Below, piece by piece: positions 5,240 to 58,800 of a DNA stretch of 64,000 nucleotides. The stretch's first letter is position 1. Each line of letters begins with the position of its first letter. The stretch is from Pseudomonadota bacterium (GTDB taxonomy: Archaea > Thermoplasmatota > SW-10-69-26 > JACQPN01 > JAJPHT01). The notes beneath the pieces are model-generated. The model was not told the DNA's origin, did no database searches, and saw nothing but the letters and a program-made list of their open reading frames with translations. The DNA is taken from contig JAJPHT010000030.1 of assembly GCA_021325135.1 (NCBI GenBank), positions 64,001 through 128,000 of the forward strand. Direction: 5' to 3'. The translations under genes were made by a program, and so were the position numbers.

Positions 5240-5262
5240 GCCCGCAATCGTGGTGCAGGACT

Positions 5263-6560: not shown

Positions 6561-6754
6561 CGTTGCAGGGACCGCAAATAGGTGCATAGCAGTTTCCAAG
6601 ATTGGCTGCCGCCGTCAAGGAGCAGGCCAGGAGCGACCTGTTTCCAAGACGGCGAAGGATCATCGACGCCACGGGCAGGAAGATAAGGGGTGCTCGGGCA
6701 ACCATCACGAGCAAAACCCCCCCGGGTTCTTTCGCCCGCGAGCTATCTCGAACT

Positions 6755-7186: not shown

Positions 7187-7189
7187 GGC

Positions 7190-16100: not shown

Positions 16101-18073
16101 CCGGGCGTGAGCGGGGGAACCTGGACGCTGCGGTTGATCGTGTACGCGATCAGGTCGCCGTGGGCGGAGTGCTGGTTGCTCCCGCTGTCGAGGAGCTGGC
16201 CGTCGGGAGAGTTCGCACTGGTGCCGTCGAGCAGGATCTTCCAGTCGTTCTGGATCGAGCAGGAGTCGGTGGGACGGCACTGCTTCTGGAAGACGCTGTA
16301 GTTGCTCAGGACCTGGATCTGCGTGTTGCCCGTCGTCGTGGTCGCGTTGAGCTGCGGCGTGCTGGGTCCGATAAGGTAGCCGGGCGCGGGTGCGTCGAGG
16401 TGGAACGAGAGGCTCGACTCGTTCCACTGCGTGCTGCCCACGCGCGGATCCGCCGCGACCTGGAGCAAGTGTGTGCCGTCCGCGCCGGTGGGATGCGTCG
16501 TCGTGCTGACGCTGTAGGTGACGATCTCGGCGTGGCCGGGGTGCGTGTTCGTCCCGTTGGCGAGCATCGCGCCATCGACGCCGCCCGGCGTGCCATCCTC
16601 AAGGACCATCCACTGGTGATCGACCGGGCACGTCTGGCTGGGGTCGCATTGGCTGACGGCGACTTGGTAGGTGAAGTTGACCGTGCGCGGGTCGCCCGTC
16701 CAGCCCGTCGTCGGGTAGATGCTGACGCCGGTGGGCGCCCAGGCCTGGTCGGGCTTGGGCGTGCTGTTTGCCTCTGCGCTGGCGGTGCCTTCGCCCACGA
16801 GGTTCGTGGCCGTGACGGTGTAGAACCAGGCCGTGCCGTTGGGGCGGTGCGTGTCCGTGTAGGTGCGGTTCGCGCCGATCTGGGCGAGGAGGGCTTCTGA
16901 GCCGGTCGTGTTGCCGCGGTAGATGGTGTAGTTCGTGACCGGCGTCCCGCCGCTCGATACGGGCGCGTTCCACGTGAGCGCGATTTCACCCACGTTCACG
17001 CCGGACGCGGCCTTGAGGTTCTGGGGCGGGCTTGGGTAGTTGAAGGTCGTGGCGCTCGCTTCGTTGCTGGCCGGACTCGCGCCGACGGCGTTGACGGCCT
17101 TGACGACGTAGTACGCCTTCACGCCGTTGCCCAGGCCAGAGTCGGTGAATGACTGAATCGTGGTGTTCGCCACGAGAGTCGTCTCGTTGCCCGTCGCGTT
17201 GCCGCGGTAGAGCAGGTAGTTGAGGATGGGCATGCCGCCGTCGTCCGAGGGAACGCTCCAGTTGAGAGCGATCTGGCCGGCGCCGGGGCCCGCGAGAGCG
17301 GCGAGGGTGGGCGCTTGTGGCGGATCCGGCAGCGTGACCTGCAAGTCGTCGTAGAAGACAGGGTGGGGCGGTTGGCCTACGAGTGGGTCCGTGCCGTAGT
17401 AGTAGTTGTCGAACGTGAGGGAATTCAGATGGCTCGCATTGGCTGAGATGCCCACGCTGGAGCTGCTGGCAAGGAGGTGCCCAGTGAGGTCGCGTACCTC
17501 GCCATGTACTTGGCCGTCGATGACATCCAGCTTAAGGACGAGCCGGTACCAGGTCTGCTGTGTGTAGCCGAACGTCTGGTGGCTGGGCGTGGTGAAGAGC
17601 GAGGTGGCGCTGCTCTTCGTGATGAGGCGCAGGTTGTTGTTGCCCGCGCCGTAGGTCAGATTGGCTTGAACCCACTCTCCGCCCGGGAAGCGAAGGGTCA
17701 GCGCGCTGCTATCGGTGCCCCCGGTCCACTGGTTGTAGAAGTCCACACCCACCTCATACCCAGACCCAGTGATGTTCAGGGTGGGACTCGCAGTGGCCGT
17801 GACGGTCTGGCCCGTGGTCTGGGCCTGGACCTCCAAGACACAAGGCGGTGTCACAGCTGTCACGTCATGCGGGTTGCAATCCTGGCCTGCGAAGGTCGGC
17901 GTGGGCGGGTTGTACGTCCAGACCGTGTTGGGCAGGTCCCATTCCTCCTGGAACAGGACCGCACCCGCCTGCGCCGTGTCGGCAAGGAAGGGAAGCATGG
18001 GCAGGCCGGCGAAGAGGAGGGTGGCGACGCTGAAGAGGGAGAAAGCGCGGGCTGGGAGGAACTGCTTCTGCAT
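7190..18073 (-). CDS. Giant (3627 aa) secreted multidomain surface protein: FN3 x2, MAM/InhA-like jellyrolls x3, TSP3-like Ca-binding repeats, beta-propeller, PKD, PPC, hydrophobic hairpin and divergent C-terminal domain
   Basis: Signal peptide MQKQFLPARAFSLFSVATLLFAGLPML. FN3: IALNWSVPSDDGG..ILNYLLYRG...YYVVKAVNAVG. MAM-like: DLSPYAG...QFEFRSDALQQARGWFLDD. TSP3-like: DSDSDGFSD, DRDNDGIPD, DSDGDGLTD. PKD: DGSTSSDPDGDPITYSWNWGD. PPC: LTGPSGTNYDLY. Confidence 0.9.
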   Translation of the reverse strand: MQKQFLPARAFSLFSVATLLFAGLPMLPFLADTAQAGAVLFQEEWDLPNTVWTYNPPTPTFAGQDCNPHDVTAVTPPCVLEVQAQTTGQTVTATASPTLNITGSGYEVGVDFYNQWTGGTDSSALTLRFPGGEWVQANLTYGAGNNNLRLITKSSATSLFTTPSHQTFGYTQQTWYRLVLKLDVIDGQVHGEVRDLTGHLLASSSSVGISANASHLNSLTFDNYYYGTDPLVGQPPHPVFYDDLQVTLPDPPQAPTLAALAGPGAGQIALNWSVPSDDGGMPILNYLLYRGNATGNETTLVANTTIQSFTDSGLGNGVKAYYVVKAVNAVGASPASNEASATTFNYPSPPQNLKAASGVNVGEIALTWNAPVSSGGTPVTNYTIYRGNTTGSEALLAQIGANRTYTDTHRPNGTAWFYTVTATNLVGEGTASAEANSTPKPDQAWAPTGVSIYPTTGWTGDPRTVNFTYQVAVSQCDPSQTCPVDHQWMVLEDGTPGGVDGAMLANGTNTHPGHAEIVTYSVSTTTHPTGADGTHLLQVAADPRVGSTQWNESSLSFHLDAPAPGYLIGPSTPQLNATTTTGNTQIQVLSNYSVFQKQCRPTDSCSIQNDWKILLDGTSANSPDGQLLDSGSNQHSAHGDLIAYTINRSVQVPPLTPGPHYLKVAARADANSSWQVSYTLLAGIIFAPNLDDATYDAGAGQTAYNVTNNGTSAIWAEGPEADLPTTGHSGSMAWGTTLAGNYPPLADGTFHFAVDLTGKASATLSFNTLFETADSYDAGQVWVQANGQRTLLTPSSGPAYAQLMDGSQGYAGSSGGWKAATFDLSPYAGGPIDVQFEFRSDALQQARGWFLDDLQVTADGSQVFSDSMENVWTKTGTWTLAVPTTGPQRGDSTLHAWSVAPFAPYPASSHSLLQLPTLDLSGVGQGSFSFEQWFHTEYGNDSAHVEISPDGGATWQVLRPATGLLYDRLPDGSLGWSGNSLGWRLTTFDLSPYAYRKVQLRFVFTSDDALQSEGWYVSDFLVTSLATGTSPLQPYNAYTTSADAFYAYFESSGKTANFTTPNGQTVSVKYTGNNGDVVARLAADGTLTARQALVVGGNPTPVSNTSFVVTNGVWVGQPTSGTWTIHGAPTLLGVGGTQLVVGGKTFDDVSPASEAIEGTGNGKVSAQNQPILHWNWHNQATARYDTGLTSTSNPEETTNDTRLRYEIDSDSDGFSDKAEIRGHSDPFNASSTPYTDDDADGVPNILEPTRTAALDPLSTALASYVQGPLTGVDWEHSSLRETTQLVNDGEQITDSNNDGVPDFADLTNDPAATAVLVGTDPAQNALAFSVAKTGMQIAILVPPDWKSTSLVEIGNGATSTTRSQISYAQFFSELSSYYATTGLSPTVQAQPGMFLDSVLRQHLNAGMTFNLVKTPATPGLQAGVPLDFLAGTGAEGTWTLIRDTDVTGVTLTLAGMSIDASLPQSSLPNMDALHVSWHFINMQNAPAVPNGHTPWYSDSGAQTQCLSYNAFLRDGSCAQFPTTQGMRLFGANASFAMRGLLTQLRTEYQAASLAPQVVAFVQAQAAATGLTNPAPSSASPAWYGAPQTTLSSTGVTFSIPQGTLAAADIGAPSPRAFDWSFEETPANSHVGNKPATRLVFEPSDHSTTGSTIVVYGATLRALGYASTYAPPSIDPSHAASTTIAWRDVDGDGINDYVLTFAHFSKAWAWFGSSSITPAPLTYATIAPNNPNNAFLSGGFNRAVVWDGMIWGPTVNCNGGSPGCLFPNDVDQNRAHDRAVASTGPSEAWYVGGNDCGQTPSVGWILRLAFNPANEGASSFTGDWQFSGSNPTTGCGTFYDVDSLTSTDVWAAGELGIYHYDGSSWTRVVNNGHGFNHTRCFDDSDCFVYDKQTSTLLKYDLAHNSLTTATNIPFVPAPYADSVVLNSNRTVLWAINGIKAAYCQLPCTSWTNANLPAGTDFIGVGIYGDSTREAWAVGSNASGNAAMYRYVSGTWTKWTAGIFASDNGFAGIGFQGNNEGWTDDFSGRTYHYTGSNSPPFANFTKDKTSATTIDVVNVDGSTSSDPDGDPITYSWNWGDNTAGVSTATASHRYTKSGTYQIQLTVTDTNGASTTSAPQAVTITDAALTNGVALTQSIAGAGESDYYQISLPSGADQLSVVLTGPSGTNYDLYAKLGSEPTTTSFDASSTGSTSSESIAKTPAGAGTWYIMVNAVQGSGQYTLTATLRSKPSAPTIAQGPNPQFPNQPTWLNGSATGGSTLTYTIAWGDSTTSPPLGPFASGTSYSAQHNYGAVGTYTATVTVTDQFGLSNSNTGNVNIRDVAVGSTDPSWGGLTSLTLNGTVSSMNGLSSVDTWFVYGQTTSYGSSTSHVTRSATGSFSVQVPGLATNTLFHYKLMMQNSMGTSDGGDRTVSTADNGAGAPTLSVSPSVTARSELVWANGSAVHPQGANLTYSIDWKDGTNTSTFPASGNVSSGTTFSLTHTYSSRGTYLVTATATDEYGVVAPTTQQAHDVVDFAAGTTSAANNVGRTSAVLNGNITDTGGDSAGVLAWFQYGTPGGATQNTTPVHYTGTTPIQVSQTATNMVQATQYQYRLIIKNERGTSTNSLGNVTTNSPPTWTSLETFPSASYEDTPVSFQGRYTDVDNDAPPAGYPAVVIDGIRHVMTPISPCVYTCGVVYAYNTTLDPGTHSYKYVYTDGTGPEQSTTQASVGPVYRIVAMSATIKYDSTANGLPSPEWTRVETGKSATSQGPFWHTVNTPNAPGLRDAPDWPTGINTEPSVSLWFGDNATGTYANGTNEAHGSVITPPMHLELAQNPALTFWTYFETQDNGTQNDTKKVYVIGPDGHETQVDTLSAPYHGNHQWWPVSISLRQWQNQTVRVRFEFATGDGQANNYRGWFINQLTVGTDRDNDGIPDSVERNTTVMTIWRSPDGTGIVPGNSQLISHQWGLQASFPESVYAAVKLSGTCNVRVVLNTTDWSTTLMNGTCSGFGTGTAGLSDGSSLVLLTNLVQAGFNAKKLDTPQTFTLTVTTLGSGSVNQYGYFLLASGHTQYMLGDSDGDGLTDGAALNVAGVDPLSRDPDNDGFLNAFDTRPFTSDAPPSIDVLGPKTTSGWPTSLQAHLTSRYGISDARLVFTGSSGNSRELVPSNQDGNTWQWDFPSDLGAVSSVRLEVNDSLRNNAEVILTYNAQQHPQTIQTSLREWSETGIVIATTFAGSVATISPTADAVCVAITEGWCALALVAGGIVTVGIGTIVAQTYQHTPQQGTTQVVRDVYNPYDPRYTRGIVQDFPFSDFNIAAGSLGCSSALRLLAGPAAGAYATSDANGIVAAYSSAFTTGGYNAISDVQSKLRTELQGTKYVFQLDAFTGVLMYVDYAGKFIDRWHLQLDPTSCDPARITYEDRTPTNDPASVDQIIQLLGAATMWALMLKIVDHGKIEPQSFVHILDGKSGNAEVTRFPMPELPQALNDAVVRSVCDYTIIPGKVCDWANNKLQQQYELTIAMLAMNAAQGNARPCAYAPPWYWEDPSNLSKRCNTVGSMAPVASNNLNTVTISSSNGAWNDLGALVVGSPLDTDQVLNVPKELKSAEDTIKAWNAGHPATRSAYLPMVAVQNSVVEVYIELEPLAITFGC

Positions 18074-40654: not shown

Positions 40655-40805
40655 ATGACCATCCGCATACTGCTCCTACTGGCCGCAGGCCTCACCTTCG
40701 CTCCCTTGATTTCCTTCTTGCCGTCCGGCTACGCGGTGGACCCGACCGGCAACGACGCCGGCACCGGCCACGACGCCGGCGAGAACGAGGCTGAGGCGGT
40801 AGTCG
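40655..40805 (+). pseudogene. 5' fragment of a secreted DxGxGxDA-motif protein, truncated at a junction with the giant minus-strand gene
   Basis: MTIRILLLLAAGLTFAPLISFLPSGYA-VDPTGNDAGTGHDAGENEAEAVV resembles the N-termini of the 1612 and 2588 genes. Beyond about 40805 the frame is only the antisense shadow of the giant ORF. Confidence 0.6.
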
Positions 40806-43800
40806 CGGGCCGTTCCGCTGGGCAGGTTGAGCGTGACGCTTCCCGTCAAAGGCCCGTTCAGCATGGTCTGGGCGCTGGCCTCTTGGGAGAGGAAGTCGTC
40901 GTTGCTGGTGTTGATCCAGGCCACGACGAGGCCATCGGCGGCCGCGTTGAGGGTGAGGCTTGCGGCGAGGCTGGCCTGCGTTGGCGTGCCCGCGCTGCGG
41001 ATGGGACTGACCCACCGGGCGCTGGATGTGCCGGGGGCAATGCGCAGCACGCCTTGGCTCGTGTCGATGCTTTGCGCGGGGCCGTGCTGGTTCCAGTCCG
41101 ACTGGTTCTGGACCACCCACGTTTGCCGCGGCAGGATGAGGCTGCTGGTGGGCGCGGCGGGCGCGTGGTGGTCGTACTGGCCGGGGCTCGTGATCCACTC
41201 GCGCCCTTTGAGCTTGCCTTGGGCTCCAGCGGCGAGGCTGAGGTACGTGTCGCGGTATCCCGTGCGGTCGGTGCTCGTGTAAGTGTAGGAGAGGTTGAAG
41301 GGGCTGGCCTGGTTGGCGAAGGACTGGTTGAACGTCCACAGCGACGTGCTCCCATCGTCGTAGTCGCTCAGGTGGCCCGAGACGCCTTGGAGTGGGCCTG
41401 CGCTGAAGTCGAGCACGCCATTGTCGCTCAGGTCCACGAACGAGTCCGCAGCCGTGACGACGATGCTCTGGGTCTGGGATCGCAGGATGAGGGTTCGGGC
41501 GGGGTCGATCTTGGCGAAGGCGTAGTGGACCCGTGCGCCGGTGAGTTGGGCGGGACCGGGATCAGGCCGGATGGTCGTGGCGCCGTGCGTGTCGCTCGAT
41601 TGGAGCGTGTACGAGGCGCTGCTCGTGGTCCAAGCGGTCCAAGGGCCCCAGGCGGTACGGTAGAGACCCGTGGCGGGATTCAGAGGCGTCAGCGGGAGGC
41701 TCGTGGTGGAGGTGACTTGGGCGGTGAAGGGGTTCGTCAGCGTGCGCAGGACGCTGAGGCCGTTGAACTGGTTGGTGGGCTCGCCACGGACGTTCTTGAC
41801 GCTGACGCGGGAGTAGTCGCTGTCAGGGGCGTTGCCTGGTGAGTCGTCGAGGCCTGAGTTGTAGTCGGTGTCGCTGGGATTGTCCGTGTCGTTGCGGCTT
41901 TCGACGTATTGGGCCACGTAGAGGCTTTTGTCGATGTCGAGGCGGTTGGGCGAGTTGAGGTCGTTCCCGAGGGCGTTGCTCGTCAGGCTCGAGGTGCCAT
42001 CAAACACGCGGAGGCTGTACCCCCAGTTCCCGTCGTACGTCGCGCTGTGCGTGCTCGTGTACGTGGACGTCGCGCTGTTGGGCACGGGGAGGCTCGTGGT
42101 GAAAAGGCCCGTGGCGGGATCGACCCCGACGGCGGATTGGTTCGCGAAGGCATCCGTGCCGTACTCGGTCGTGCCGCTGCCGCGATAGACCATGACCGTG
42201 ACGTTGCGGGCGTACCCCAGGGAAGCGTTCGGGTTCTTCACGCGGTACGCAGCGCCGTCCGCATGGCGCAGCAGGCCGCCCACCTGAACGACCTCGCCGG
42301 GCTCGTAGGCCTTGAATGGGGTCGTGGTGTTGCCCGTGATGTTGGTGTCGAGCCAGTCCGCCTGGATCGCGCGACTGACCTGCCAAGTCTCGTTGTAGGG
42401 GTCGGGCGTGGTCTGCGTGCCGTTGGGGAGCTGGAAGCTGAGGGTCCACGATCCGGCAGGGTCGGAGGACGCGTGAAGGAGGTCCGCGTTCGGAATCAGG
42501 CCTCCCGTGGTGGTCCGGGTGAGGACCTGCGTGGCGAGGGAGGGGCGCGTGAAGATCACTTGGACTTGGGTTCCGTCGGGGGCGGGCTGGCCGCGGCTGC
42601 CCCAGAGGGTGGCGTTCGCGCGCTGCGTGTCGCCCGCCATCAAATCGGCATAGGGCGCGACGGCGCCGCGGTAGGCGAGGGTGCTCTGGGCGAGCCAGAC
42701 CTTGTTGCTCACGTCGAGCAGGTTCGGCGTCGTCGCGTTGGGCGCATCGGGGAGGCTCAGGCCGGTTCCGCCCGTGGTGGTCGTCGCGCGCTGCGGCTGG
42801 TCGCCAAGGAGACGAATATCCGGGCTGTCCAAGGCGGGGGATGCTCCGGGTGTCAGGAGGACGTAGTGGTAGTCCAAGGGATCGGGGGCCAGGAGCGTGG
42901 TGGCGTTGTAGGTGTCGGGCTGGCCGGCGAGGCTCGCGGTGCAGGGCGCGCAGGCCACATCGCCAGTCTGGTTGGTGGCGCTCTGGACGGGGTCGTTCGT
43001 GCCGAAGCCGCTCGCGAGGAAGATTTGAACGGTCGTGTTGCGCAGGGGGTTTCCCCAGCGGTCCTTCAGGGTGGCGCCCACTTGAAAGGCGTCCGTCGTC
43101 GCGTACGCGGGCGTCGTCGCGCTGGCGCCCACCTCGCCAAGGACTTGGGGGGATCTGGTGCTGCCCAACAAGATCTGGTTGTCGATGTAGTAGGAGGCGT
43201 TGGTGCGCTGGCCGGTGTCGGGCCGCGTGATCATCGTCTGGAATGCGAGGCTGGTCGCGTTGTACGCCGGGGCGCGTTGGGTGTTGAACTGGACCCACGG
43301 CTGCAGGCTGTTGAAGGGGAGCTGGCGCGCGACCAGGACAGTCTCCATGATGGGTCCTGGAGACGCGTTGGGAGCGGTCTGGACTTGGTAGGTGAGCGTC
43401 TTGCTGGTCCAGGCGAGCTCGCCCCAGGCGAGCGTGTTGTTGAACGCGTCGGCCTCGCGGACCAAGAGGCTCTCCTGGGGCATGAGCACGGTGTAGTTCC
43501 ACGCCGTCGTGGACGCGTCCGGCGTCATGCCCAGCCACATGAAGGTCGCGCTCGTGCCTGTCGTCCAAGCGTAGCTGCTCAGGGCGAAGCCGGCGCTCCC
43601 AATGGGGTAGACGGCGGTCTGGGGGGCGGTCACGATGGTGACGAACGGGCGCAGCGTCTCGCCCTCGGCGCTCAGGAGCGCGTACGAGAAGGTCGCGTCC
43701 TGGGAGGTGCTCGTCTGGGCGTCTTGGACCATGACGCCCAGGAAGCAGAGGACTTCTTGCTGGTAGCTGACGAGCTCGACCTCGACGTTCAGGCTGGACG

Positions 43801-46800
43801 TCGCCGCGGTGATCTGCTTCATGGTGCCCACCACGGCGTTGGTCGTGGGGTTGACGGGGATGGCGAAGACGCGACCATCGTTGGTCGTGGCGGCGACGAG
43901 CCAGTACCTACTGCGCGCGTCGTAGGCGACGCCGTAGGCGTGCGTCATGCTGCCACTGTTGGTGGGCGTGTCGGTGCTCCGGTCGAGGATGTCGAACGTG
44001 CCCGTGCCCAAGGGGTTTCCGCGCTCGTCGAGGAAGCGGCCGCTCAGCTTGAGCGCCGTGCCCGTGCCGACGCGCTCGGCCGTAAGGAGGAACTCGCCGT
44101 TGCCGTAGACGACGTTCGGGTTCTGGGTGGCTCCCGTCGTGACGGTGAGGACTTGGCCCACCGTCGTGATCGCGTCTTGCGTGGGATCGTAGAAGGTGAC
44201 GCTGATGCCCTGGTTCGTCTGTCCGTAGTAGAGCACGATGCCTTGCTTTCCCGCGATGGCGCCCAGGCTCTGGGTGCACGATCCGCAGAGGGAGCCGACG
44301 TTGAAGCTGCGCACCAGGTTGAGGTTCGTGTCGAACTGCTTGAGGTACCACTTCTGGTCGCCCACGAGCTGATAGACGAGATAATAGGCGTCTTGGGGGC
44401 TATAGTAGGTGAGGCTGAGCAGTTGGCCCGGCGTGCCTTCCTGGTTCTTGTTGATGAGGACGACCCTGCTCTGCTGGATCTTCATGTTCGCGTCGTAGGC
44501 GCGCGCGTAGACACCGCCCGCGTCGCCGAAGAGGAAGATCGTCCGGGATCCGGTCTGGAGGGGCGTCTGCATGGTGCCCACGTCGCCTTGGCTGCTCACC
44601 GTCTGGACGCTGCCGTCGAAGGCCGTGTTGGCGGTCTTCATCCAGTTCTGGTCGTAGTCGGGCTGGAGGCGCCAGGGAGTCGTCTCGGTCTGGATCTTGC
44701 CACAGATGGACTCTCCGCGAGTGATTTGGCTTTCGGGTTGGGCGCAGCCCTCGTCGGCGTGGTACGTCTCGTAGGAGGTGACGTTGGCCGTGGTGGTGAG
44801 GTATCCGGCTTGGCTGTTGCCGTAGCTGCCGGCGGGGCCTTGGTCCCAGTCGCTGTTGCTGGTGCTGTCGATCTGATTCGTGGCGCCATTGCGCCAGGCG
44901 GCTGTGATGGCCATGCGGTAGGAGCCCGCGTAGGCCAGGTTCGCGGCGGCGGGGCCCAGCGTGTTGGCCGCGTTCTTGTTGATCCACCATTGCGTGGTGA
45001 GCGTCTGCGTGCTCGTGCCTCCCACGCCGGTGACGCTCTTGTACGAGATGCACCCCTGGGTTTCGCAGAAGGGGATGGCGAATTGGCTCGTGGTGCTGAC
45101 CTGGCTGGTGGCGAAGTTGAAGAAGGTCAGAGTCGCGTAGACCCAGTCCGTCGTGGCGTTCTGGAGGGTCCGGTTGCCCGTGGGTCCGTTGCCCCAGACC
45201 AGGTAGAGCGTGAGGTCCACGCCGTTGGCGGTGAGGCTCGTCGTCTCGGGGTAGAGGTAGAACTTGGGCGTCGCGCCCGTCGTGAACATGGATTGACCGG
45301 ATTGGGGATTGCTGGTGGGATCGTTCTGGTCGCGAGCACGAAGGGTCACGCGGTAGTTGTTCACGCCGTCGGTGCTCGTCGCGATGGCCACGCCGGGGTT
45401 GGAGAGACCGTTCCCAAAGGGGTTCCCAGCCTGGCTCAAGGTGGGCATCCCCTGGGGCGCGCCAGTGACGCGCAGGGTCACGTTGCGCAGGTCGCTGGGG
45501 CTCAAGAAGTCGCGAGATGCGACGCTCACGGCGCCCGATTGGCCCACGTCGCCTTCTCCGGCGAGGCTGACTGCGCTTACGCCGTACGTGTAGGCCTGGG
45601 GGTCCCAGTTGGGCCGGGCGTCGCTGTAGCTGGTCGCGTTGATCGTGGCGATGAGGGTTTGGGGATTCATCCGGTAGAGCCGGTAGTAGAGGATGGGCAA
45701 GCCACCATTGGCGGGAGGCGTCCATGTCAGGTGCACGATGTTGTCCGGGCGCACGCTCGCCACTGGGGTGGGTGCGTACGGGACGCGGGCGGGCGTCGCG
45801 TTGAGCCAGGCAAATCCGCCTTCGCCTTGGGCGTTCTGGGCGGCGAGCCGGTACGTGTAGGTCACGCCATTCAGGAGAGGCGCGTCCTGGTAGGTGGTGG
45901 CCGTGGGGGGCAGGGTGGTCAGGAGGGTCCAGTTGAGACTCGTGCCACGGTAGAGGTTGAGCTGGGTGATGGGGTTCCGACCGTCCCAGGCAGGAAGTAT
46001 CCAGCGCAGGCTCAGGGCGGCGTCCTGGACGCGGGCGCTCAGGTTCCGGGGCGGCGTGGGCGCCACGCCGCATCCCGCGCAAGGCAGGACGGCGACCTGG
46101 GCGCTGGGCGACGCGTTGTGGAAGGAGGAGTCGTAGGCCACGAGGCGGTAATAGGCGGGCTGGGCGTTGGGGATGCCCGCGTCGGCGTAGCTGATTGACG
46201 ACCACGAGAGGTTCGCGACGGGCTGGCCCAAGTCGAAGCCGGGCACGGCGCCGCGGTAGACGTAGTAGCCAGCGAGGCTCGTCTCGGGGTTGGCAACCCA
46301 GGTGAGGAGCGCGCCCCCATCGCGCGGCACGGCCGCAAGGCCGCTCACCGCGCCCGGGAGGGGGGGAGCATTCAGCGTGGGCGTGACGGTGAGGGAGTTG
46401 CTGGGATCTCCCGGAGTGCCTGCGAGGGCGGCCACCTGGAGACTGACCGTGACGCCGTTGGTCAAGCCGTTGAGCGTGAACGTCGTGTTCGTGCCCCCCA
46501 CGAGGGCGACCTGCGCGCCGTTCTTGAGGACCGCGTAGTTCGTGACTGGGGTACCGCTTGACTTGCTGGGCGGGCTCCAGGCCAGATCCACGGCGCCGTT
46601 GCGTGGCTGGGCCACCAGGAGGTTGGGCGAGTAGGGAGCGAAGCTGGGCGTGTCGGTCACGAGGTTCGAGGGGGCTGATTCTTGGCCGTTGGCGAGGGTC
46701 GTGACGACGAACGCGTAAGCTTGGCCCTTGACGAGGTTGTTGACGAGGTAGGACTGGTTCGCGCCGCCCGTGTCACCCACGAGCACCCGGCTCGTGCCCG

Positions 46801-49800
46801 TCAGGCCGGCGTACACGTTGTAGTCGGTCGCCGCAGGCCCTTGCGAATTGGGCGTCCAAGAGAGTTGGATGCTTGGCGAGGAGCCGGAACCGGCCGCGTG
46901 GGCCAGGGTGGGCGCGATGGGGGCGGGGCCTGCCACGGGCATGACGCCTTGGGAGGGGCCGAGCGGCCCCTCGCCGGCCGTGTTGACGGCGCTGATCGCG
47001 AAATAGTACGACCCTCCGTTGGTCAGTCCGTTGGCGCGGAACGTGGTGTTGCTGCCGCCCGTGTCGCTCAGGTTGACCAGGAGGCCCGGGTTGGATCCGG
47101 CGTAGATCACGTAGTCGGTGGGCGCCGCGCCGCCCGTGCTCGCGTTCATGCTCCACGCGACATCGACGAAGCCGTTGCCCGGCGAGAGGGTGAGCGCGAC
47201 GGGCGCGCCCGGGGGCATGGCGTGGGGCATCGCCCAGAGGGGGCTCGTGGGCGGGCCTTCGCCCGCGCCGTTGAGCGCCGTCACTTCGAAGGCGTAGGTC
47301 TGGCGGTTCTGGAGGTTGTTGACGTCGTAGGAGGCGTTGAGGCCGCCCGTGGCGCCCACGAGGCTGTAGGTCGTGCCGTCCGTGCTCTTGTAGACGCGAT
47401 ACGTGGTGACGCTCTGGCCTGCCGTCGTGCCGTTCGCGGCCGCCTGGGGCGCGTAGGAGGGACCGAAGGGACCCACGCGGCTCTCGAGGAAGACGACGTG
47501 GTTGGATGCGTCGAAGAAGTACGTTCCTGGTGCGAGGCTGGAGAGGCTGCCCACGCTCGTCGGGGCGGGCTCGCCGTAGACTTGGGCCGTGGAGAGGGTG
47601 GTGAGCTTGGGGCTCACGGGGATGCGGTAGATGCCGTTGGCGGATTGCCAGGCGTTGGGGCCTCCGAAGGTCGCGCTGAGCGGGCCGGGGGTGAAGACGT
47701 TGGTCTCGCTGCTTCCGCTCTGCGAGCGTTGGACGCTCGTGCTGACGAGGTAGTTTGGAGACCACGTGACGCTGATGCCGTTGGTGGGCACGCTCAGCGC
47801 GAGGCCGCTGTCGCCGATCCATTCCAGGGTGGCCGTCAGCGTCCGGGGCGTTCCGGGCAAGTTTCCCACCTGCTTGCTGAACATGGGATTGAACCACTGG
47901 CCATTGATGTTCATGTCGAGTTGACAGAAGAGGCACCCGTTCGTGTTGAACACGACGGGCGTGACTTGGTAGGAGTTCGCGTCGTTTGGCGTCGTGAGCG
48001 GGTTGCTGGTGAGGTAGGCGTCGGGCGCGTACGTGCTGCTCCAGAGGTTGAGGTAGAACCCCGTGTTGCCGTCCTTGGTCCAGCCGCACGTGTTGTCCGC
48101 GCAGGGGTGCGTGATCACGTAGTAGTTGGCCCACGTGGCGGCACCTCCCGTGGTGTCGGTGCCGTAGGTGCAGGTCGCCGTGTTGGTGCCTCCGATCTTG
48201 AGCGCGTACGTGTTCGCGGAGCTCAGCGTGGGCGGGGGGTCGAAGACGAGGGATGCAAAGCCGTCGGACTGGAGCGTGAGGGGCGAGCTGGTGGCGATGG
48301 GCGTGGTGGGCTGGCCGCTCGAATCGGTCGCGTAGAGCGTCCACGCGCCTTGAGTCAGGCCGGCGCAGCCGGTGATGCTCAAGTCGATGCGGTCCACGCG
48401 GCTGGTCGTGGTGACTTTGAAGCCGGCGTACCGCGCGTTGAGGCCGTTGGGGCCCGCGTAGCTGGTCGGCAGCGTCTGGGCTGGACCGGGGGCACGCACG
48501 TCGGTGGAGGGGATGCTGGGGGGCCACCATTTGCTCGCAGCTTGGTTGATCGTGGTGTCGTGTAGGCTGACGAGGAGGCCGCAGTATTGGCCCACGTCGT
48601 TCATGAGGCCCGTGGTGGGATCTTTGGAGACGCAATGCCCAGCGAGGTTCGCTGTTCCCCCGCTCAAGCTGTCCATGAGGCTCACCTTCTCGTTGGCGCA
48701 CATGCGCGCCGAGGGCAGCAAGCGCAGCGCGTAGGTCACTCCGGGGTTGAGCGGGACGGCTCGGGTGAAGGTGGCTGGGAGCCCCCATGGGCTGTGGGTT
48801 CCCACGATCCAGGGCGTGATGGCGTCCGAGGCGCTGTCCGCGAGCATCGTGGTGCCCTGCCAGAGTTGGATCTCGAACCACTCCGTCTGCGAGCAGGCGG
48901 GGGTGAATTGGAGTTCGAAGCTGGCCTGGTAGAGGAAGCCGGAGGTGGGCACGGTGAAGGATTGCTGGAGGTAGGTGCTAGGGATGCTGGCGAGGCCGGT
49001 CTCGATGTTCTGCGCCGTCTGGAGGGTCGTGGCTTGGCTCGCCGGTTCCCACGTGAAGGCTGCGGCGTTTTGGTCGGGCGCGAGGGAGTCGCGCACGCTG
49101 GCTGCGTCGGTCGTGCTCGTGGTCGTGGCGCCCACGGGAGGATCCCAGGTGAGGTTGATCGTGCCGCTTCCCGGGACGGCGCGCAGGTTGCCCGGCGCGG
49201 CAGGGGGTGAGCCTTGGCCCGCCACAAGGGGCACGAAGAGGAGCACGACCATGACGCCCATCGCGAGTCCCAGGAGGCACGTGGCGAAGGGGCGCGCGGG
49301 GGCGCGCTGGCAGGGTCCCCGGGAGGGCTTCGCCGTGCGTGGGCGCGCCAGCAAGGCTGCGAGGGCGACGACGAGGAGGGCGCCGGGAGCAGACGGGCCC
49401 GGGATGAGGAAGGGGCGCTTGAAGACGCCTTGGGCGACTTCCTGGGTGCTCGTGGGCGGCGTGACGATGGGCCTCTCGGGGGCGTGGTACGTCACAATGA
49501 TCCAGTTGTGCTGGGGGGCCGCGGGGTCGGTCTCTTGGTTGCCCACGGCGTCCGTGCTCGTGCTCTTGAACTCGTACGCGACGCCGTCCAGCGCGTTGGT
49601 CCACGCGGCGCTGCCCTGCCTGGAGGCGTTGGCCACGAGGAGGGTCCAGTCGCCCAGGCCCACGGGGCGGCCCCAGACGGTGACGCCCGTGACGAGGTTC
49701 TGGGTGTCGAAGGCGCTCCAGCCCACGATGATGGTGTTGGGCGCCTCGAGGCTGACGCTGGCGTAGAGGACGCTGGTGGGCGCCGTGGTGTCGTTCGTCG

Positions 49801-52800
49801 TGAGACCGGGGATGTAGAGCCGGACGCTGCGGGTCAGGTTCTCGTTGATCGCGGCCAAGGCGTCCTGGATGTCCTGCGTCGTGTTCTGCCCCAGGGCCGC
49901 CTGGACCTCTCCCAGCGTCGCCTCCAGGCGCAGCCCCGTGGCGTCCATCCGGTCGATCAGGCGCGTCGTGTTGCTCGCCACGTCCCCGCGCAGCGCGGCC
50001 AAGGCAAGGGCTTCATCTTGGCCGAATTGGGCTTGTTGGGCGAGGATGCTCTGAATCGTGTCGGCGATGGTCGCATTGCCCAGGCTTCCGACGCGCTGGG
50101 AGAGGAGGGCCAAGGCGTCCAGCGTCGTGCTCACGTTCTGGCCCACAGAGGATTCGACGTCCTGCGCGGTGCGCAGGAGGGCATCCGCCAGGCTCGTGTT
50201 GACAAGGCGGAGGCTGGCGCTCAGGTTGAGCGTGGCGTTGATGACGTCGTCCTGGCGGGTGCGCGCGTCGCCCAAGAGCGCGGCCTCCGCGCTCAAGACA
50301 GTCGCCACGGCGGTCTGGTTCTGGGATTCGATGCTGGCGAGGATGTCGAGGGTGTGGTTCACGATCTGGTCGCTACGGGCGTTGAGCTGGGCCAGCACGG
50401 CGACCTCTTGGGCGGTGAGGTGTTGCGTGATGCTGGTCGCGTTGGTCTCCAATCCGTCGAGGATGTCGAGCTCCCGCTGGTAGACGGCGTCACTGCGGTT
50501 GTCCACCTGGGCCAGGATGGTCAAGGCGGCGAGCGTCACGCTCTGGTTGAGGCTCGCGGTGCCGAGGGTCAGGTTGGCGAGGATCGTCGTGCTGCGGTTC
50601 GCCAGGTCGTCGCTGCGGGCATCGACGCGCGCCAGGACGGTGAAGGCCGTGGTCGTGAGGGCCTCGTTGGTCTGGGTCGCGTTGGCCGCGATGCTTGCCA
50701 GGATGGCCTCTTGGCGCGCGACGAGGTCGTCGCTGCGGTTGTCCACCGCGGCCAAGATGCTCAAGGCGCGCTCTGCAAGGTCCTGGCTGAGCGTGGCGTT
50801 GACGCCCGTGAGGGTGTCCAGGAGGTGGAGAGTCTGGTTGACGAGGGCGTCGTCGCGCTGGTTCACCACGGTGAGGACTTGGAGCGTCTGGGCGCTCAGT
50901 GTGCTCGTTGTGGCGCTGGCGTTCAGGGCAATGCTCTGAAGAATTTGGTCCTCCCGCGCCTGGGCCTGGCTCGACTGGTTGGCGAGACTGCCCAGGACGT
51001 CCAGTTCGAGGCCCACGAGGGACTGGTTCTGCTGGGCCTGGTTGGTGCTCAGGGCGGAGAGGATCGCCGTGGTTTGGTTGAAGGCCGCGTCTTCCTGGCC
51101 CGCCAGGCTGGCGAGGATGCTGAGGGCTGTGGCATGGAGTGAGTCATTCAAGCCCTGGCGGGCGTTGGTGAGGTTCTCCAGGAGGCTTGTGCTGCGGAGG
51201 GCCAAGTCGTCCGAGCGCGCGGAGATGGTGGCCAGGATGCTCACGGCGTTCGCTTGGAGGCTCGCGTTGAGCGTCGTGTTGGTGGAGGCCAGGTTGGCGA
51301 GGATCGCCTCGGTGCGGGCGACAAGGTCGTCGCTGCGGTTCGACACGGCCCCCAGGATCAGGAGTCCTTGGGCCGCGAGGCCGGCGTTGAGGGTCGCGTT
51401 TTGCGCGGTGAGATTGCTCAAGAGCGTGGTCGTGCGCAGGACCAGGTCGTCGCTGCGGGCGTTGAGCTGGCCCAGGATCAGGGTCGCGTTGGAGGCGACG
51501 CTCGTGCTCACCCCCGTCAGGTTCGAGAGGAGCAGCGCCTCTTGGCCTACGACCTGGTCGCTGCGCGCGTTCACTTGAGCCAAGAGCGTCGTGAAGTTGT
51601 CGCGGAGGCTCTCGTTCAATCCGCCTTGGTTCGTGACGAGGAGGTTGAGCAGCGTCGTGGTCCGAAGCACCAGGTCGTCGCTGCGCGTCGTCACGTTGCC
51701 CAGGATCAAGAGCAGGTTGGACTCTGCTTGCTGGCTCAGGTTCGACTGGGCGCTTGTGATGTTGGCCAGGACGAGGAGGGTCTGGTTGTAGACAGCGTCG
51801 CTGCGCGCGTCCACGTGGCCGAGCACCTGGGTGGTCTCGTTGAGGAGCTGGGCTGTCAGGTTTCCTTGGAGTGTGGTCACGTTGGCGAGGACCCAGAGGG
51901 TCTGGTTGAGCGCGTCCTGCCCCCGGGCGTCCACGTCGCCGAGTACCTCTTGGAGGCGGGTCTGGAGGCTCTGGTTGAGGCTCGTGAGGTTGTTCAGGAT
52001 TGTCGTGTTGGTGAAAGAGAGGTTCGCCTGGACCTGGGCGAAGCTCGTGTTGATCTGCGCCTGGTTAAAGTCGATTTTCCCCGAGAGGATCGTAATGCTC
52101 GTCCCCAAGGACGAGTTCGTGTTGTTGAGCGTGGCCCAGACGAGGTTGACCTGCTGCTGCGCCGAGAGGTTCGAGTTGGAAATCTGGGCGCTCAAGGCGT
52201 TGACCTGGGACTGGAGGCTCGCGTTGAGGTTCGACACCTGGAGCGTGACGCCCTGGAATTGCGTCCCCACGCTCGCGTTCATGTTGCTGATGTTCACGAG
52301 CAGGCTCGACGATTGGTTCGTGACGTTGGTCTCCTCGTTGTGGATCTGGAGGGACTGGAGCGCAAACTGGGTCGAGACGTTCGTGTTGGCGTTGTCGATC
52401 TTCGATCCCAAAAGGAGAGTCTGCGTCTGGAGGGTCGCGTTGGTGTTGTTCACGCCGAACCAGACCTGGTTGACTTGCGAGGTGATGTTCGCCTCCTCGT
52501 TGCGCACGAGGAGCGAGAGAGAATTGTACTGGTTCGAGACGTTGGTGTTTTGGTTGACGATCTGGCCCATGATGGCGTTGGCTTGGCTGGCCACCGAGGC
52601 GTTCGTGTTCTGCACCTGGCTCGTCACCGTGGAGAGCTGTGAGCCCAGGCTCGCGTTGGTGTTGTTCACCACGAGGCCCACGTAGCTGACCTGGGCCGTG
52701 ATGTTCGCGTTGCCTTGGGCGAGGCTGACTTGCACGCTGTTGAGTTGGGTGCCCACGCTGGCGTTCGTCTGGTTGAGCAGGCTCGTCACGTAGTTCGTCT

Positions 52801-55800
52801 GCGCCGAGAGGTTCAGGTTCGTGTTGACGACTTGGCCGACCAGCCCGTTGTACTGCGATCCGACGGTGGCATTCAGCGTGGAGAGGTTCGCGCTCACCAG
52901 GTTGACTTGGGCCGACACGTTGGTCTCGACGTTGGCGACGTGCGCCTGCAGGAGGTTGACCTGCGACTGGAGGCTGGTGTTGAGGTTGGAGAGATTCACG
53001 AGAACCGTGTTGGTCTGGCTCGAAAGGTTCCCGTTGAGGTTCATGACTTGGGACTGGAGCAGGTTCAACTGCGTCGTCCCTGAGAGGTTCGCGTTCGAGA
53101 CGGCTTGGCTAAGGAGGTTGTACTGCAGCCCGATGCCCGCGCTCGCCCCCAAGTACAAGGCGAGGGCTTCCGAGTCGGTGATGGGGCGCCGGTAGACGTG
53201 CAGCTCGTCGAGGGTGCCATGGAAGCCGGCCTGGTGTCCGCCCACCGGGTCCGGGTTGGTGGCCTCGCCGCCGCTGCGCGCAAAGCTGGCCGTGATCACG
53301 CCGAGGGTGACGAGGCTCAACGTGCTCGTGCCGGCCGGGGCGCCGTCGATCCAGAAGCTGGCGCCGCGCGTTGCGTTGTTGTACGAGGCGGCGACGTGGT
53401 GCCACTCGTTCGGGGCCAAGCCGCGCGAGGCCCACGCGGTCTCGTTGCGCGTCCCATCGGCCATCGTGAAGGCGGGCGTGTAGTTTCCGGGCCCCAGGCC
53501 GAACCAGTACCCCGCGGGCGCGTTCTTGCCCTTCGCCATGGTTGTGAAGATCGTCTCGCCCAAGGAGCCGCTTCCTGTGGGCAAGACCCACGCGCTGAGC
53601 GTCTTGTTGGAGAGGCCCGTGAAGTCGGAGGCGGGCGCGTAGTCGAGCGTGTCGTTGACGCCGTTGAAGAGCAGGCCGGTTCCGTAGCGGCCCTGGACCC
53701 AGGTGGGCGCGCCCCAGCTCACGGTGCCGTGGCGCCCGTTCGCGGTCGTGTCGTAGGCGGTCGTGCCTGTTCCTTCGTCGTAGGCGTACTTGGCGACCGT
53801 GTCGGTGGGGGCGAGGGGGTCGTTGGCGTTGGCGAACTGGTTGATGACGCGGGCCAGGAGCGTGTTTTCCTGCTGCGAGAGGCTCGCGTTGCTGTTGAGG
53901 ACCTCTGTCAGGATCGCATTTGTCTGGTTGACCATGGTCGCATTCGCCGCGACGATTTGGAGGCTCACGGCGTTGGTCTGGTTCTGGAGCGAGGCGTTGG
54001 TGCTCGCAATCTGGGCCGAGAGCAGGTTCGATTGGTTCAGGACCGTCCCGTTGAGCGTCGAGAGTGTCGTGACGAGGACGTTGTATTGGGTCGAGACGTT
54101 CGTGTTCTCGCTCACGATCTGCGCGCTCACCACGTTCGTGACGTTGGTGAGATTCGCCTCCGTCGTCCGGATCTCCCCATAGAGGAGGTTCGATTGGTTC
54201 ACCAGCGTTGCGTTGCTCATGGCGATTTGCGCCGCGAGGGCGTTGGTCTGGTTGAGCAGGGTGAGGTTCTCGCTTGTGATCGCCGCGCTCAAGGCGTTGT
54301 ACTGCAAGGACAGGTTCGCATTTTGGCTGACGAGCTGGGCCTGGAGGGTGTTGGTTTGGTTCTGGAGGCTTGCGTTCGTCGTGCTGATCAAGGCCGAGAG
54401 CTGGCTCGATTGGTTCACGACCGTGGCGTTGGTCGTCGCCACGCTCGAGAGGACCACGTTGAACTGGCTCGTGATGTTGGCGCCTTGGCTGACGATCTGG
54501 CCCTCGACGTAGTTGGACTGGTTGGTGAGATTCGACTCCGAGACCCGCACCTGCCCCAGGACGAGGTTCGTCTGGTTGCCCACCGTCGCGTTCACGCTGC
54601 TCAGGCTCGACAAAATGAGGTTCGTCTGGTTCTGGATCGACGTGTTGCTCGTCTGGATTGCCGCGCTGATGGCGTTGAACTGCGCGGAGAGGTTGGTGTT
54701 CGTCGAACTGATGCTCGCCTCGATCTGGTTCGATTGGTTGGCCAGGCTGAGATTCACGTTGCTCACCTGGGCGCTCAACGCATTCGCCTGCGACGATACC
54801 GAAGCGTTCAGCGTCGTGATGTTCGAGAGCACGAGGTTGAACTGCGTCGAGACGTTCGCGTTCTCGCTGACAACCTGACCAGCCAGGAGATTGGACTGGC
54901 TGGAGAGGTTCGCCTCGGTGGTCCGGATTGTTCCGGTCACCAGATTCGTCTGGTTCGTGGCGTTGAGGTTCGCCGAGAGAATCTGGGCACTGAGAAGGCT
55001 CGTTTGGTTGAGCAGCGTGAGGTTTTCGCTTGTGATGCTCGCGGCAAGCACGTTGTACTGCGCGCTCAGGTTCACGTTCGTGCTGGCGATTTGAGCCGAC
55101 AAGCTGCTCGTTTGCGCTTGGAGGGACGAGTTGAGCGTCGTGATGTTGGCCTGCAACGTGCTCGACTGGTTCTGGATCGAGGCGTTCGCGCTCGCCACGC
55201 TGGCCAGAATGAGGTTGAACTGGCTCGACACGTTGGCGTTCTCGCTGACGATCGCGCCGCTCAGGAAGTTCGACTGGTTGGTCAGGTTCGCCTCGCTCGT
55301 GCGAATCTGGCCCAGAACGAAGTTGGTCTGGTTGCCCACCGTGCTGTTGCTGGCCGCGATCTGCGAGAGTATCGCATTCGTCTGGTTGACGAGGGTGGCG
55401 TTGCCGCTCAAGACGCTGGCCACGAGGCTGTTGTACTGCGCCGTGACGTTCGCGTTCTGCGTGACGATCTGGGCCTCAATCGTCGTGGTCTGGTTGCCCA
55501 ATGAGGCGTTGGTGCTCGCCACGCTGGCCTGGATGGCGAGGGTCTGGTTCGTGATGGCGGACTGCGCATTCTGCACGAGCGTGTTCGTCGCGGCGAACTG
55601 TTGGACGACGCTTGTGTTGAGATTGACGACCTGGGAGCTGACGAGGCTCGTCTGCGTCTGTACGCTCGAGTTGGTGTTGTTGACCGTGAACCATATGAGG
55701 TTCGCTTGGCTCGACAGGTTCGCCTCCTCGTTGTGCACCACGAGGCTGAGGCTGTTGAACTGGTTCGACACGTTGGCGTTCTGGTTCTGGATTTGCGCGA

Positions 55801-58800
55801 GGATCTGGTTGGCCTGCGTGACCACCGTCGCGTTGGCGTTGTTCACCGCCCCCAGGACCGTCGAGACTTGGCTCTGGAGGCTCGCGTTGGAGTTGTTGAC
55901 GAGGAAATCGACGTAGTTGAGCTGCGCGCCGAGGCTGGCGTTCTGGTTTGCGATGCTCACCTGGACGGCATTCAGTTGCCCAGCGAGGGAGGCGTTGGTG
56001 TTGTTCACCAGCGCGCCCACGATGTTCGTCTGGGCCGAGAGGTTGGCGTTGGTGTTTTGGACCTGGGCGGTGAGGCTGTTGTACTGGTTGAGGACCGAGG
56101 AATTCAGGTTCGAGACGTTCGCGCTGAAGGCCGAGATCTGCGTGGTGAGGTTCGTTTCGGTGTTGGTGACGTGGGCCTGGAGGAGGTTGGCCTGCGTCGA
56201 GAGGTTGGCGTTCAGGTTCGAGAGGTTGACCAGGACCGTGTTGGTTTGGGCGGTGAGGTTGGACTCCGAAGTCCGAATCTGGGACTGGACGAGGTTCACC
56301 TGCGTCTGGATGCTCGCATTGGACGTCGCGATGCTCTGGCTGAGGAGGTTGACCTGGTTGAGCAGGCCGGGGCTGACGCCGACTGCGTCAGCCTGCATCT
56401 CGGTCGGGTTGAGGCTGCGGTCCCAGACCTTGGCCTCGTCGATCATGCCGTGCCAGCCGAAGATGGGGGCGCAGCAGGCCAGATCCCCCACCGTGAGGCC
56501 GTGCTGGCCGAAGTACGTCTCGTTGGGCGGCGCCATGGGCCGGGGCGCGCTGGGAGCCAGGCTTTGGGCGTCTTGGGCGCCGTTGAGGTAGAGCCGGAGG
56601 CTGGACTGGTCGTAGACCAGGCCGACGTGGTACCACGCGCCGGGCTGGAGTGGGGTCGCGCCTGTGGCCGTGAGCGTCGTGGTGTTGTCGAGCCAGACTC
56701 GACCCTGTAGTTTTGGCGTGCCCCCGGCGACGTAGAGGCTGAACCCGCCCCAGGCCCCGCTTGAGCACGTGCAGTCCCGGTCGTTGCCCAGGACGTACCA
56801 CGCGGAGCTGCCCAGGCTCTGGGTCCAGTTGTCAAAGTCGGCCGCGTAGATCCAGGCGCTGGCGCTGAGGCTCCCGCTGTTCAGGGTGAGGTTGCTGGGC
56901 GATTGGGCGTACTGGCTGATCCCGTGCTGGCTGATCGCGCGCCAGGCGACGTCCTGGGGGCCTTCGGCGAAGTTGTAGGCGCGGATCTCGTCGAGCCGGC
57001 CGATCCAGCCCGCCTTGTTGCCCCCCTGCGTTTCGGGCAGGACGGCCTCCCCGCCCAAGAGCGCCCGCCCGCCCACGCCCGGCGCCAGGCCAAGGGTGCC
57101 CGTGGCAATGGGCGACCCGTTCACGTATAGGGTGGCGGTGTTGGTGGCCTGGGCGTAGACGGCCACGGCCTGCTCCCAGGTGTTGAGGGGGAGAGACGCG
57201 CTGGCGGTGACGTTGGACTCGGCGCCCGAGCCGTCGCTGGTCACGAAGCTGAGCCGGCCGGCGGCGTCGAGGCCGAACCAGTAGCCGGGGCTCGTGCCGT
57301 CAGGGTAGTTCTTCGTCGTGAGGATCGTGGCGCCGTTCCGGTCGAGCCCCTGGGGGTAGATCCACGCCTCCAGCGTCCGGTCGCCCGTGAGGCCCGAGGT
57401 GAAGGGCGCGGTGGGGAGGATGACCTCGTCGTTGGCGCCATCGAAGGTGGCGGCGTAGCCGTACTTGCCGTGGACGTGGCTCATGTTCGCTTGCGGGTTG
57501 TACGACCCGTCGCGTCCCAGTTGAGTGCTGTCGTTGGCCGCGCCACCGTAGTGCTCGTCCAGCCGGTACCACGCAACGAGGCCCGTCGTGTTCACGTTGG
57601 GCGCGAGGGGCTGGAGATCGAGCGAGCTGCCCACCCGGCCGCCCGCGACCTCGACGGCGCCCCCCTTGAGGATCAAGTCGTGACCCTTGCCGCTCTGGTC
57701 CTTGGCCAGCGTGTTGTTCGAGAGGTCGTCGAAGGGTGCGTAGAGCGCCGCGCTCCCGTCGATGCCGCGCTGGATGGCGAATTCGTTGAAGATCCGCGCC
57801 AGGATGAGGTTCGTCTGGTTCGCGATCGTCGCATTCGAGTTGACGATGCTCACCAGCAGCGAGTTCGTCTGGTTGAGCATCGTGCTGTTCTGGCTGCTGA
57901 TGTTCAGGAGGATCGTGTTGGCCTGCGAGGTGAGGTTCGTCTCCTCTTGTGAAATACGTCCCGAGAGGAGATTAGTCTGGTTGACCACCGTGCCGTTGAC
58001 GACGCTGAGGTTCGACAGGACGAGGTTGAACTGGGTGGAGACGTTCGCGTTCTCGCTGACGATCTGCCCGGCGACGAGGTTGGTCTGGTTCGTGATGTTG
58101 CCTTCCGTCGAGCGGATCGTCGCTGAGATGAGGTTCGATTGGTTCGTCGCGTTGAGGTTCACGCTGGCCAGTTGCGCCATGAGCAGGTTGGTTTGATTGA
58201 CCACCGTGGCGTTGCTGCTCGTCTGCGCCGCCACGAGGGTGTTGTACTGCGCGCTGAGGTTGAGGTTCTCAGCCACGATCTGCGCCTGGATCGCGTTGGT
58301 CTGGTTCACGCTCGTGCTGTTGGCGCTGGAGATCTGGGCGCTCACTTGGCTGGTTTGGCTTGTGAGATTTGTCTCGGTGTTGCGTACCTCGCCGTAGATG
58401 AGGTTGAACTGGCTCGTCGTGCTCGTGTTGGCGTTCACGATGAGCGCTGAGACGAGATTTGCCTGGCTGACCACCGTGCTGTTGGTGTTGTTGACGCTTG
58501 CCCAGAGGGCGAAGGTCTGGTTCGTGATGTTCGTCTCAGTGTTGTGCAGGCCGAAGCTGAGGGTGTTGAACTGCGTCGTCACGTTCCCGTTCGTCGTCGC
58601 GATGTCGCCCCTGATCAGGTTCGCCTGGGTGCCAATCGAGAGGTTGGTGTTGTTCACCGCGCCCCAGACTATGTTGACCTGGTTCTGGATCGAGGCGTTG
58701 GTGTTCACGAGCGTCGTGGCCACGCTGGTCACTTGCGCCTGGAGACTCGCGTTGACGTTGCTGAGGTTCGTGTTGACGACGTTGATCTGGCCGGTGAGCG

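Follow-up and report, generated by a model that had tools for sequence, protein, structure and literature searches.

Organization of the giant open reading frame

The window analysed here is a stretch of 64,000 nucleotides (contig C46, positions 64001–128000) of G000, a metagenome-assembled genome of the Thermoplasmatota that comprises 3.77 Mb in 51 contigs and is 94% complete with 5.6% contamination. A search of this genome for SSU rRNA gave no hit. Its minus strand carries a giant open reading frame (ORF) that occupies positions 40676..64000, with its stop at 40676, and runs past the window end to C46:131000. The giant ORF has about 8,774 codons in all (a gene of about 26 kb; the frame stays open over 8,779 codons), 7,774 of which are located inside the window. 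The true N-terminus lies outside and, as read in the next 3 kb of the contig, consists of a basic n-region and a Leu-rich signal peptide. A Pfam search revealed five LamG-type domains in the first part of the protein and FN3 domains in the last part, and the G+C content at third codon positions (GC3) of the frame is 0.90 overall. A hydropathy scan of the 8,774 residues detected four hydrophobic segments, namely the N-terminal signal, two mid-chain segments (helix 1 and helix 2), and the final 20 residues. The region around the two helices, where the first part of the protein (part 1) passes into the second (part 2), constitutes the junction that is the subject of this analysis.

The translation of 48902–49801 (minus strand, as for all junction features) displays the order of elements described in the initial annotation: an immunoglobulin-like (Ig-like) domain, a Pro/Thr-rich linker, a PGP motif, a helix, the sequence RPRTAK, a second helix, QGSPP and FN3 domains. 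The Ig-like domain (49478..49801) is the last folded domain of part 1 and is conserved with two homologous proteins, P0028 and P0067, described below. No Pfam family matches this domain. Its weak matches to Ig-like modules of surface proteins from 22 other genomes of the phylum were rejected as relatives of the junction, because such generic modules are uninformative about it. The in-frame translation continues through the linker (49418..49477) to the juxtamembrane motif RPFLIPGPSAPG (49382..49417), a candidate sorting motif of the form R-P-x-L-[IV]-P-G-P-[ST] that is kept in both P0028 and P0067. Helix 1, GALLVVALAALLA (49346..49384), was recognized by translation and hydropathy and is helical in an AlphaFold2 model. 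It has a hydrophobic core of 13–15 residues followed by RPRTAK, and probably represents a former C-terminal anchor helix running out to in. The basic loop that begins with RPRTAK comprises 19 residues (49289..49345), including five Arg and one Lys, and is predicted to be cytoplasmic by the positive-inside rule.

The loop leads into helix 2 (49217..49288), a signal-peptide-like segment identified by translation and hydropathy, with 24 hydrophobic residues ending in PLVAG and a putative in-to-out orientation. A candidate signal-peptidase site, V-A-G↓Q, is found in the sequence between 49217 and 49216; the mature start of part 2 would then be QGSPP (QGSPPAAPGNLR, from 49216), followed by the FN3 start. 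Part 2 (40679..49216) is rich in FN3 domains, as initially annotated, and its exact length is 2,846 residues where about 2,800 had been given. In Pfam terms it comprises the FN3 start, several FN3 domains and a large region without an assigned family; the fn3 family is found in four stretches (E 2e-30), and hundreds of FN3 matches were obtained in the protein search. In the whole chain, the tail formed by the motif, helix 1 and the basic cluster is preceded by 5,860 residues and followed by 2,886, and helix 2 starts at residue 5,902 of 8,774. A single-sequence AlphaFold model of the junction has a predicted local distance difference test (pLDDT) value of 43, with both helices recognizable and the Ig fold not confirmed.

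Integrity of the junction

None of the three frames has a stop between the two parts, in line with the initial annotation, and GC3 across the hairpin formed by the two helices is 0.87–0.88 in the frame of the giant ORF. The probable source run is from soil (2017), and Logan offers an independent assembly of that run. A 96-kb Logan contig is identical over 47500–51000 at a depth of about 20, with no variants or indels listed, and the junction is present without a stop or an indel in both assemblies of the source sample. Support across the hairpin had been named as a point to be checked in the initial annotation; the two assemblers agree there at this depth, with no stop or frameshift. An exhaustive protein search, for which the query was 1,200 residues centred on the junction, also recovered a 534-residue fragment from a separate assembly that is 100% identical and spans the junction. 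Fragments of part 2 are found at 99.2–99.8% identity in other samples, all from run assemblies. Three runs from two other studies (X2–X4; mine 2024, soil 2025) contain identical or about 93% similar pieces on either side of the junction. The giant ORF is real.

The internal sorting-tail homologue and the sortase homologues of the host

A stop-to-stop frame scan of G000 revealed 41–44 ORFs whose C-terminal tail consists of [K/R]-x-P-[A/G]-P-[G/E], some 16 hydrophobic residues and RRRR. These ORFs are distributed over many contigs, including C3, C14, C19, C27, C33 and C48, and a smaller set of ORFs has PGF-type tails. The PEP-CTERM model TIGR02595 gives nine weak matches among the G000 tails, only two of which exceed the cut-off, and the PGF-CTERM model passes two other ORFs. 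Judged by these models, the main P-[A/G]-P tail class of G000 is PEP-CTERM-like yet uncatalogued.

A tail profile was built from 41 terminal tails of G000. The internal tail scores 17.6 bits on this profile, ranks first among 2,304 internal hydrophobic segments (runner-up, 11.9 bits) and lies among the scores of 44 true terminal tails (median, 20.8 bits). Because of this score and rank, the resemblance of the internal segment to a sorting tail exceeds chance. Its I-P-G-P-S sequence aligns with the P-[AG]-P-[GE] of the 41 terminal tails, and it is the sole tail-like segment in G000 with a long continuation after it. The alignment and score identify the segment as a genuine sorting-tail homologue that is native to the tail class of the host. 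The motif was initially called PGF-CTERM-like, a label that does not hold, as the tail belongs to the P-[A/G]-P class and matches no PGF-CTERM model. Sorting signals normally occupy the extreme C-terminus; the internal tail does not, whereas that of its homologue P0067 does.

The initial annotation had pointed to an archaeosortase as the enzyme to be sought in the genome. Three exosortase/archaeosortase homologues are encoded in G000, at C6:51059, C39:65118 and C15:107291 (PF09721 / TIGR04178). All three exceed the signature cut-off of TIGR04178, and each is below the cut-offs of the named subfamilies; one is XrtA-like, one ArtC-like and one XrtH/ArtB-like. A literature search on archaeosortase or exosortase in Thermoplasmata or Thermoplasmatota retrieved nothing useful. 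The P-[A/G]-P tails and the three unclassified sortase homologues may constitute a new tail/sortase pairing in Thermoplasmatota.

At the nucleotide level, tail-coding DNA of other genes, both in the source and in other metagenomes, resembles 49348–49388, differing at about 5 of 39 bases. Where coverage is low, partial repeats of this kind may interrupt assemblies precisely at the sorting tails.

Helix 2 as a candidate signal peptide

The signal peptides of tail-bearing proteins in G000 display a short basic start and a Leu/Ala-rich core, often with Pro, and native examples end in PLVAA↓Q, SVGG↓QVAPP or AAAA↓GSPP. Helix 2 ends in PLVAG↓QGSPP, and because of this similarity its cleavage region and mature start look native. 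The n-region that precedes it ends in R-A-P-A-R-P, and Pro, Val and Gly are found at positions −5, −3 and −1, respectively. Helix 2 thus has the features of a Sec type I signal peptide (basic n-region, hydrophobic core, small residues at −3/−1) but is internal instead of N-terminal. On a crude signal-peptide profile it ranks 83 among 2,329 hydrophobic segments, a control set that includes true signal peptides.

Terminal, split and fused relatives

Two true homologues of part 1, P0067 and P0028, were found in the exhaustive search. Both align through the stalk end, the Ig domain, the linker and the motif R/K-P-x-L-[IV]-P-G-P-[ST]. P0067 (2,274 residues; 43% identity over query positions 270–476) carries a signal peptide of its own, a comparable head and a single LamG domain, and it stops 25 basic residues beyond the helix, so that the tail is C-terminal in this protein. 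The 19-residue loop of the giant ORF resembles this 25-residue basic end in composition and length. P0028 (2,475 residues; 36% identity over 435 residues) is instead fused in frame, with a basic loop of 38 residues, a Met-led signal peptide ending in FAAA↓D, and an unrelated domain of about 370 residues without a Pfam match.

A distant homologue of part 1 is encoded in G026, a genome from another family of the phylum that is the only member of its class (head, E 2e-11; Ig domain, E 1.5e-6). In this split counterpart (L043, G026:C2:27000–42000, positions 2716–14537), gene 1 closes with a helix, a basic tail and a stop codon, and a spacer of 34 nt that includes GGAGGA separates it from the ATG of a signal-peptide protein of 1,984 residues. 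The latter protein carries a C-terminal helix of its own and is unrelated to part 2 of the giant ORF. Whether homologues are fused or split at this position had been raised in the initial annotation, and all arrangements are represented: the tail is terminal in P0067, the genes are split in G026, and P0028 is fused to another passenger. The G026 homologue of part 1 is interrupted by a scaffold gap of Ns in the stalk repeats.

No homologue of the junction was found in forty relatives of G000, and genomes of the same genus, family and class contain none of the junction, the part 2 start or the head. The first 600 residues of part 2 have no match in the class (21 genomes), and no homologue was found for its first 600–700 residues. 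Protein searches with the part 2 start, with the stalk end plus junction, and with the Ig domain plus tail retrieved nothing beyond the identical fragment P0004, and the junction alignment revealed no related locus among metagenome, genome and viral contigs. Paralogy between the head of part 1 and the N-terminal module of part 2 was also considered and is not supported (best BLASTP E 0.026).

The 3' end of the giant ORF

The 3' end of the giant ORF (40676..40800, minus strand) is unnatural, as its last 40 or so codons lie antisense to the start of a truncated plus-strand gene. This gene has an ATG near 40655, a signal peptide and a D-A-G-x-G-x-D-A-G motif (N-D-A-G-T-G-H-D-A-G), which also occurs elsewhere in G000. 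By its sequence, the 3' end of the giant ORF is a rearrangement scar. The head-on breakpoint lies at 40655–40800, where the plus-strand gene continues as antisense of the giant ORF and both genes are without natural 3' ends. The apparent C-terminal helix of the giant ORF is a by-product of Asp/Gly/Asn codons read backwards.

Origin and proposed processing of the fused protein

The arrangement is, on balance, best explained by an in-frame fusion of two adjacent and co-oriented surface-protein genes, which would have generated a Sec-compatible hairpin and possibly retained a sortase-type cut. A fusion origin is favoured because the tail closes P0067, the two genes are separate in G026, and P0028 is fused to a different passenger. 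The occurrence of split, terminal and two fused states points to a pattern of repeated accidental fusion and not to a conserved two-component design. Gene 1 would derive from a family with a signal peptide, a head, a helical stalk rich in sugar sequons with LamG inserts, an Ig-like domain, a linker and a tail made of P-G-P, helix and basic residues. The product of gene 2 would have been an FN3-rich protein secreted by means of a signal peptide of its own. A small in-frame deletion would have brought the basic tail of gene 1 against the hydrophobic core of the gene 2 signal peptide. The initial annotation had offered a recent stop-loss fusion as an alternative. The relatives favour the fusion of two genes; simple stop loss is disfavoured, and an in-frame deletion is inferred in its place because no stop, spacer, start codon or ribosome site is left.

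According to the proposed mechanism, the Sec machinery would export part 1 (about 5,800 residues) by means of the N-terminal signal. Helix 1 would then halt the transfer (out to in), leaving the loop of charge +6 in the cytoplasm, and helix 2 would restart export (in to out) of the following 2,846 residues. Both ectodomains would thereby reach the outside with a membrane hairpin between them, and the fusion would be tolerated because this out-in-out topology fits. The Haloferax volcanii protein HVO_0405, described as a fusion of two independent genes, is cleaved at its central site in an ArtA-dependent manner (PMC7157517), and for this reason a tail with protein after it can still be a sortase substrate. 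A host exosortase/archaeosortase-type enzyme may likewise still recognize the motif, helix and basic tail of the giant ORF and cut part 1 free. Such a cut at the internal tail is judged slightly more likely than not. Cleavage by signal peptidase at V-A-G↓Q is plausible, if a little less likely. That at least one of the two candidate cleavages takes place is judged to be probable. One round of translation would then give two products with separate anchors, an outcome that we read as a by-product of the fusion and not as a selected stoichiometry device. A fixed 1:1 stoichiometry, proposed in the initial annotation, is without support as a selected trait, since the passengers differ among relatives and the 3' end is a scar.

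Several observations weigh against the fusion with a retained cut. The tail-like segment has no match to the NCBIfam C-terminal-tail models, PGF-CTERM included, at E up to 10 (segments of 97 and 300 residues), and as a basic cluster its RPRTAK falls short of the RRRR that is usual in the host. Helix 2 has a core of 24 residues, longer than those of native signal peptides, and long hydrophobic cores favour uncleaved signal-anchors. It scores 12.2 bits on a crude profile of 35 native signal peptides, below their range of 13.2–36.6. The P0028 fusion is known from one gene call. The three downstream passengers (giant ORF, P0028, G026) are mutually unrelated, so there is no sign of a conserved partnership. 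The locus may also be decaying, given its rearranged 3' end. Finally, the contigs of X2–X4 never bridge 49311–49400 and all stop before helix 1; they are short and of low depth, and this absence of bridging is evidence neither way.

The points concerning cleavage would fit an uncleaved hairpin, in which a single chain of 8,700 residues is anchored mid-chain by the two helices and displays both ectodomains, the former tail acting as a stop-transfer segment and the signal peptide as a re-start. This topology is self-consistent without any cleavage, and it would account for the long, low-scoring core of helix 2 and for a degraded basic cluster that no curated tail model matches. Moreover, part 2 has lost its natural C-terminus, which makes an uncleaved helix 2 its only designed anchor. 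The P-G-P motif and V-A-G↓Q are nevertheless intact, the motif is kept in P0028 and P0067, and ArtA cuts a central tail in HVO_0405; we consider the uncleaved form unlikely, with an appreciable share of the probability. In the opposite direction, a polyprotein under selection would use sortase and signal peptidase to release two giants in a 1:1 ratio for a two-component surface structure. Both signals are intact, the layout recurs in P0028, and viral glycoprotein precursors and astrotactins share the logic of a helix hairpin plus signal peptidase. Against this, each of the three cases has a different passenger and the genes are separate in one relative, genomes of the same genus lack a homologue of the junction or part 2, the curtailed 3' end suggests a locus in flux, and both cleavages are needed; such selection is improbable. 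Nearly the same low standing applies to a working cassette, in which the sortase cut and the V-A-G↓Q cut would yield two giant surface proteins and a discarded hairpin, and fusions would recur (here and in P0028) because co-delivery is advantageous.

An artefact would require that a stop or frameshift is masked by an assembly or consensus error, or that the contig is chimeric at the tail, for which similar coding DNA exists in about 40 genes. The sequence does come from a metagenome-assembled genome with 5.6% contamination, in three other samples the short contigs all break off close to the junction, and the tails of other genes match 49348–49388 at all but 5 of about 39 bases. That number of mismatches is, however, too high for shared assembly words. 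The concordance of two assemblers at a depth of about 20 without listed variants or indels, the identical 534-residue fragment across the junction, the in-frame GC3 of 0.87–0.88 and the lack of a nearby stop in any frame make an artefact very improbable. Even less credence is given to internal initiation, by which part 2 would also, or only, be translated from the TTG at 49354 or from an internal transcript. The initial annotation had proposed this TTG as a start of the second protein. The codon exists, is in frame and would yield a basic n-region followed by helix 2; its use as a start is made unlikely by the 25 bases upstream, which are pyrimidine-rich (CCCTCCTCGTC...) and contain no purine-rich, GGAGG-like ribosome site and no AT-rich promoter box. 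It also sits inside helix 1, and the split relative G026 uses an ATG with GGAGGA.

Comparison with known systems

The precursor of tetrabrachion is cleaved to give two chains. Part 1 of the giant ORF is comparable to stalk proteins of this type in being a giant glycosylated helical stalk protein, a likeness of general description; no hairpin of tail and signal peptide takes part in the cleavage of tetrabrachion. Viral glycoprotein precursors and astrotactins have an anchor helix and, after it, another helix that serves the next ectodomain as an internal signal sequence. We know of nothing in prokaryotic cells that corresponds to the processing of viral glycoprotein polyproteins. The glycoprotein polyproteins of flaviviruses and bunyaviruses and the mammalian astrotactins are reported as helix-hairpin precursors cut by signal peptidase (bioRxiv 10.1101/493858; PMC7926653). 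They share with the giant ORF the anchor helix followed by an internal signal-type helix. They differ from it in belonging to the eukaryotic endoplasmic reticulum and in having proven cleavage, whereas the giant ORF is prokaryotic, its cleavage is a candidate one, and its helix 1 is also a sortase-type tail.

HVO_0405 is likewise an archaeal secreted protein of gene-fusion origin with a motif-helix-basic signal in mid-chain (Abdul Halim et al. 2017, J Bacteriol 199:e00802-16, as described in PMC7157517). It differs in its PGF motif, in the involvement of ArtA and in Tat export, whereas the giant ORF has a P-G-P motif of the PEP-CTERM-like class and Sec-type export. The tail of the giant ORF, moreover, precedes a signal-peptide-like helix and an ectodomain of 2,846 residues. 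With the PEP-CTERM/exosortase and PGF-CTERM/archaeosortase systems (PMC1569441; TIGR02595, TIGR04126, TIGR04178), the host shares tails with a motif, a helix and an Arg cluster, and many substrates per genome together with sortase-family enzymes. In contrast to those systems, the segment in the giant ORF is internal and unmatched by curated models, and the tail class of the host barely reaches TIGR02595.

A central sortase signal that arose by gene fusion (HVO_0405) is thus already known, as is an anchor helix combined with an internal signal cut by signal peptidase (viral precursors, astrotactins). Three aspects are new: the size of the two parts (5,860 and 2,846 residues), a P-x-P tail class of Thermoplasmatota that is not yet catalogued, and a single family in which one split, one terminal and two fused arrangements can be seen directly. 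The locus suggests that tandem surface-protein genes can merge without loss of export, as an anchor helix with its end inside the cell joins a signal peptide beginning there to make a membrane hairpin. If host enzymes cut both signals, the giant ORF would exemplify a natural polyprotein of a prokaryote, processed by proteases of the secretion pathway, and would be a handy substrate for finding the enzyme and the cleavage rules of the P-[AG]-P tail class. For annotation, the locus is a warning that sorting tails and signal peptides located thousands of residues inside giant ORFs escape C- or N-terminal predictors.

A second giant ORF in the window

A further giant ORF of 3,627 residues is located at window positions 7190–18073 (minus strand). 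It has an N-terminal signal peptide and is without a C-terminal helix or sorting tail; its C-terminal sequence looks soluble.

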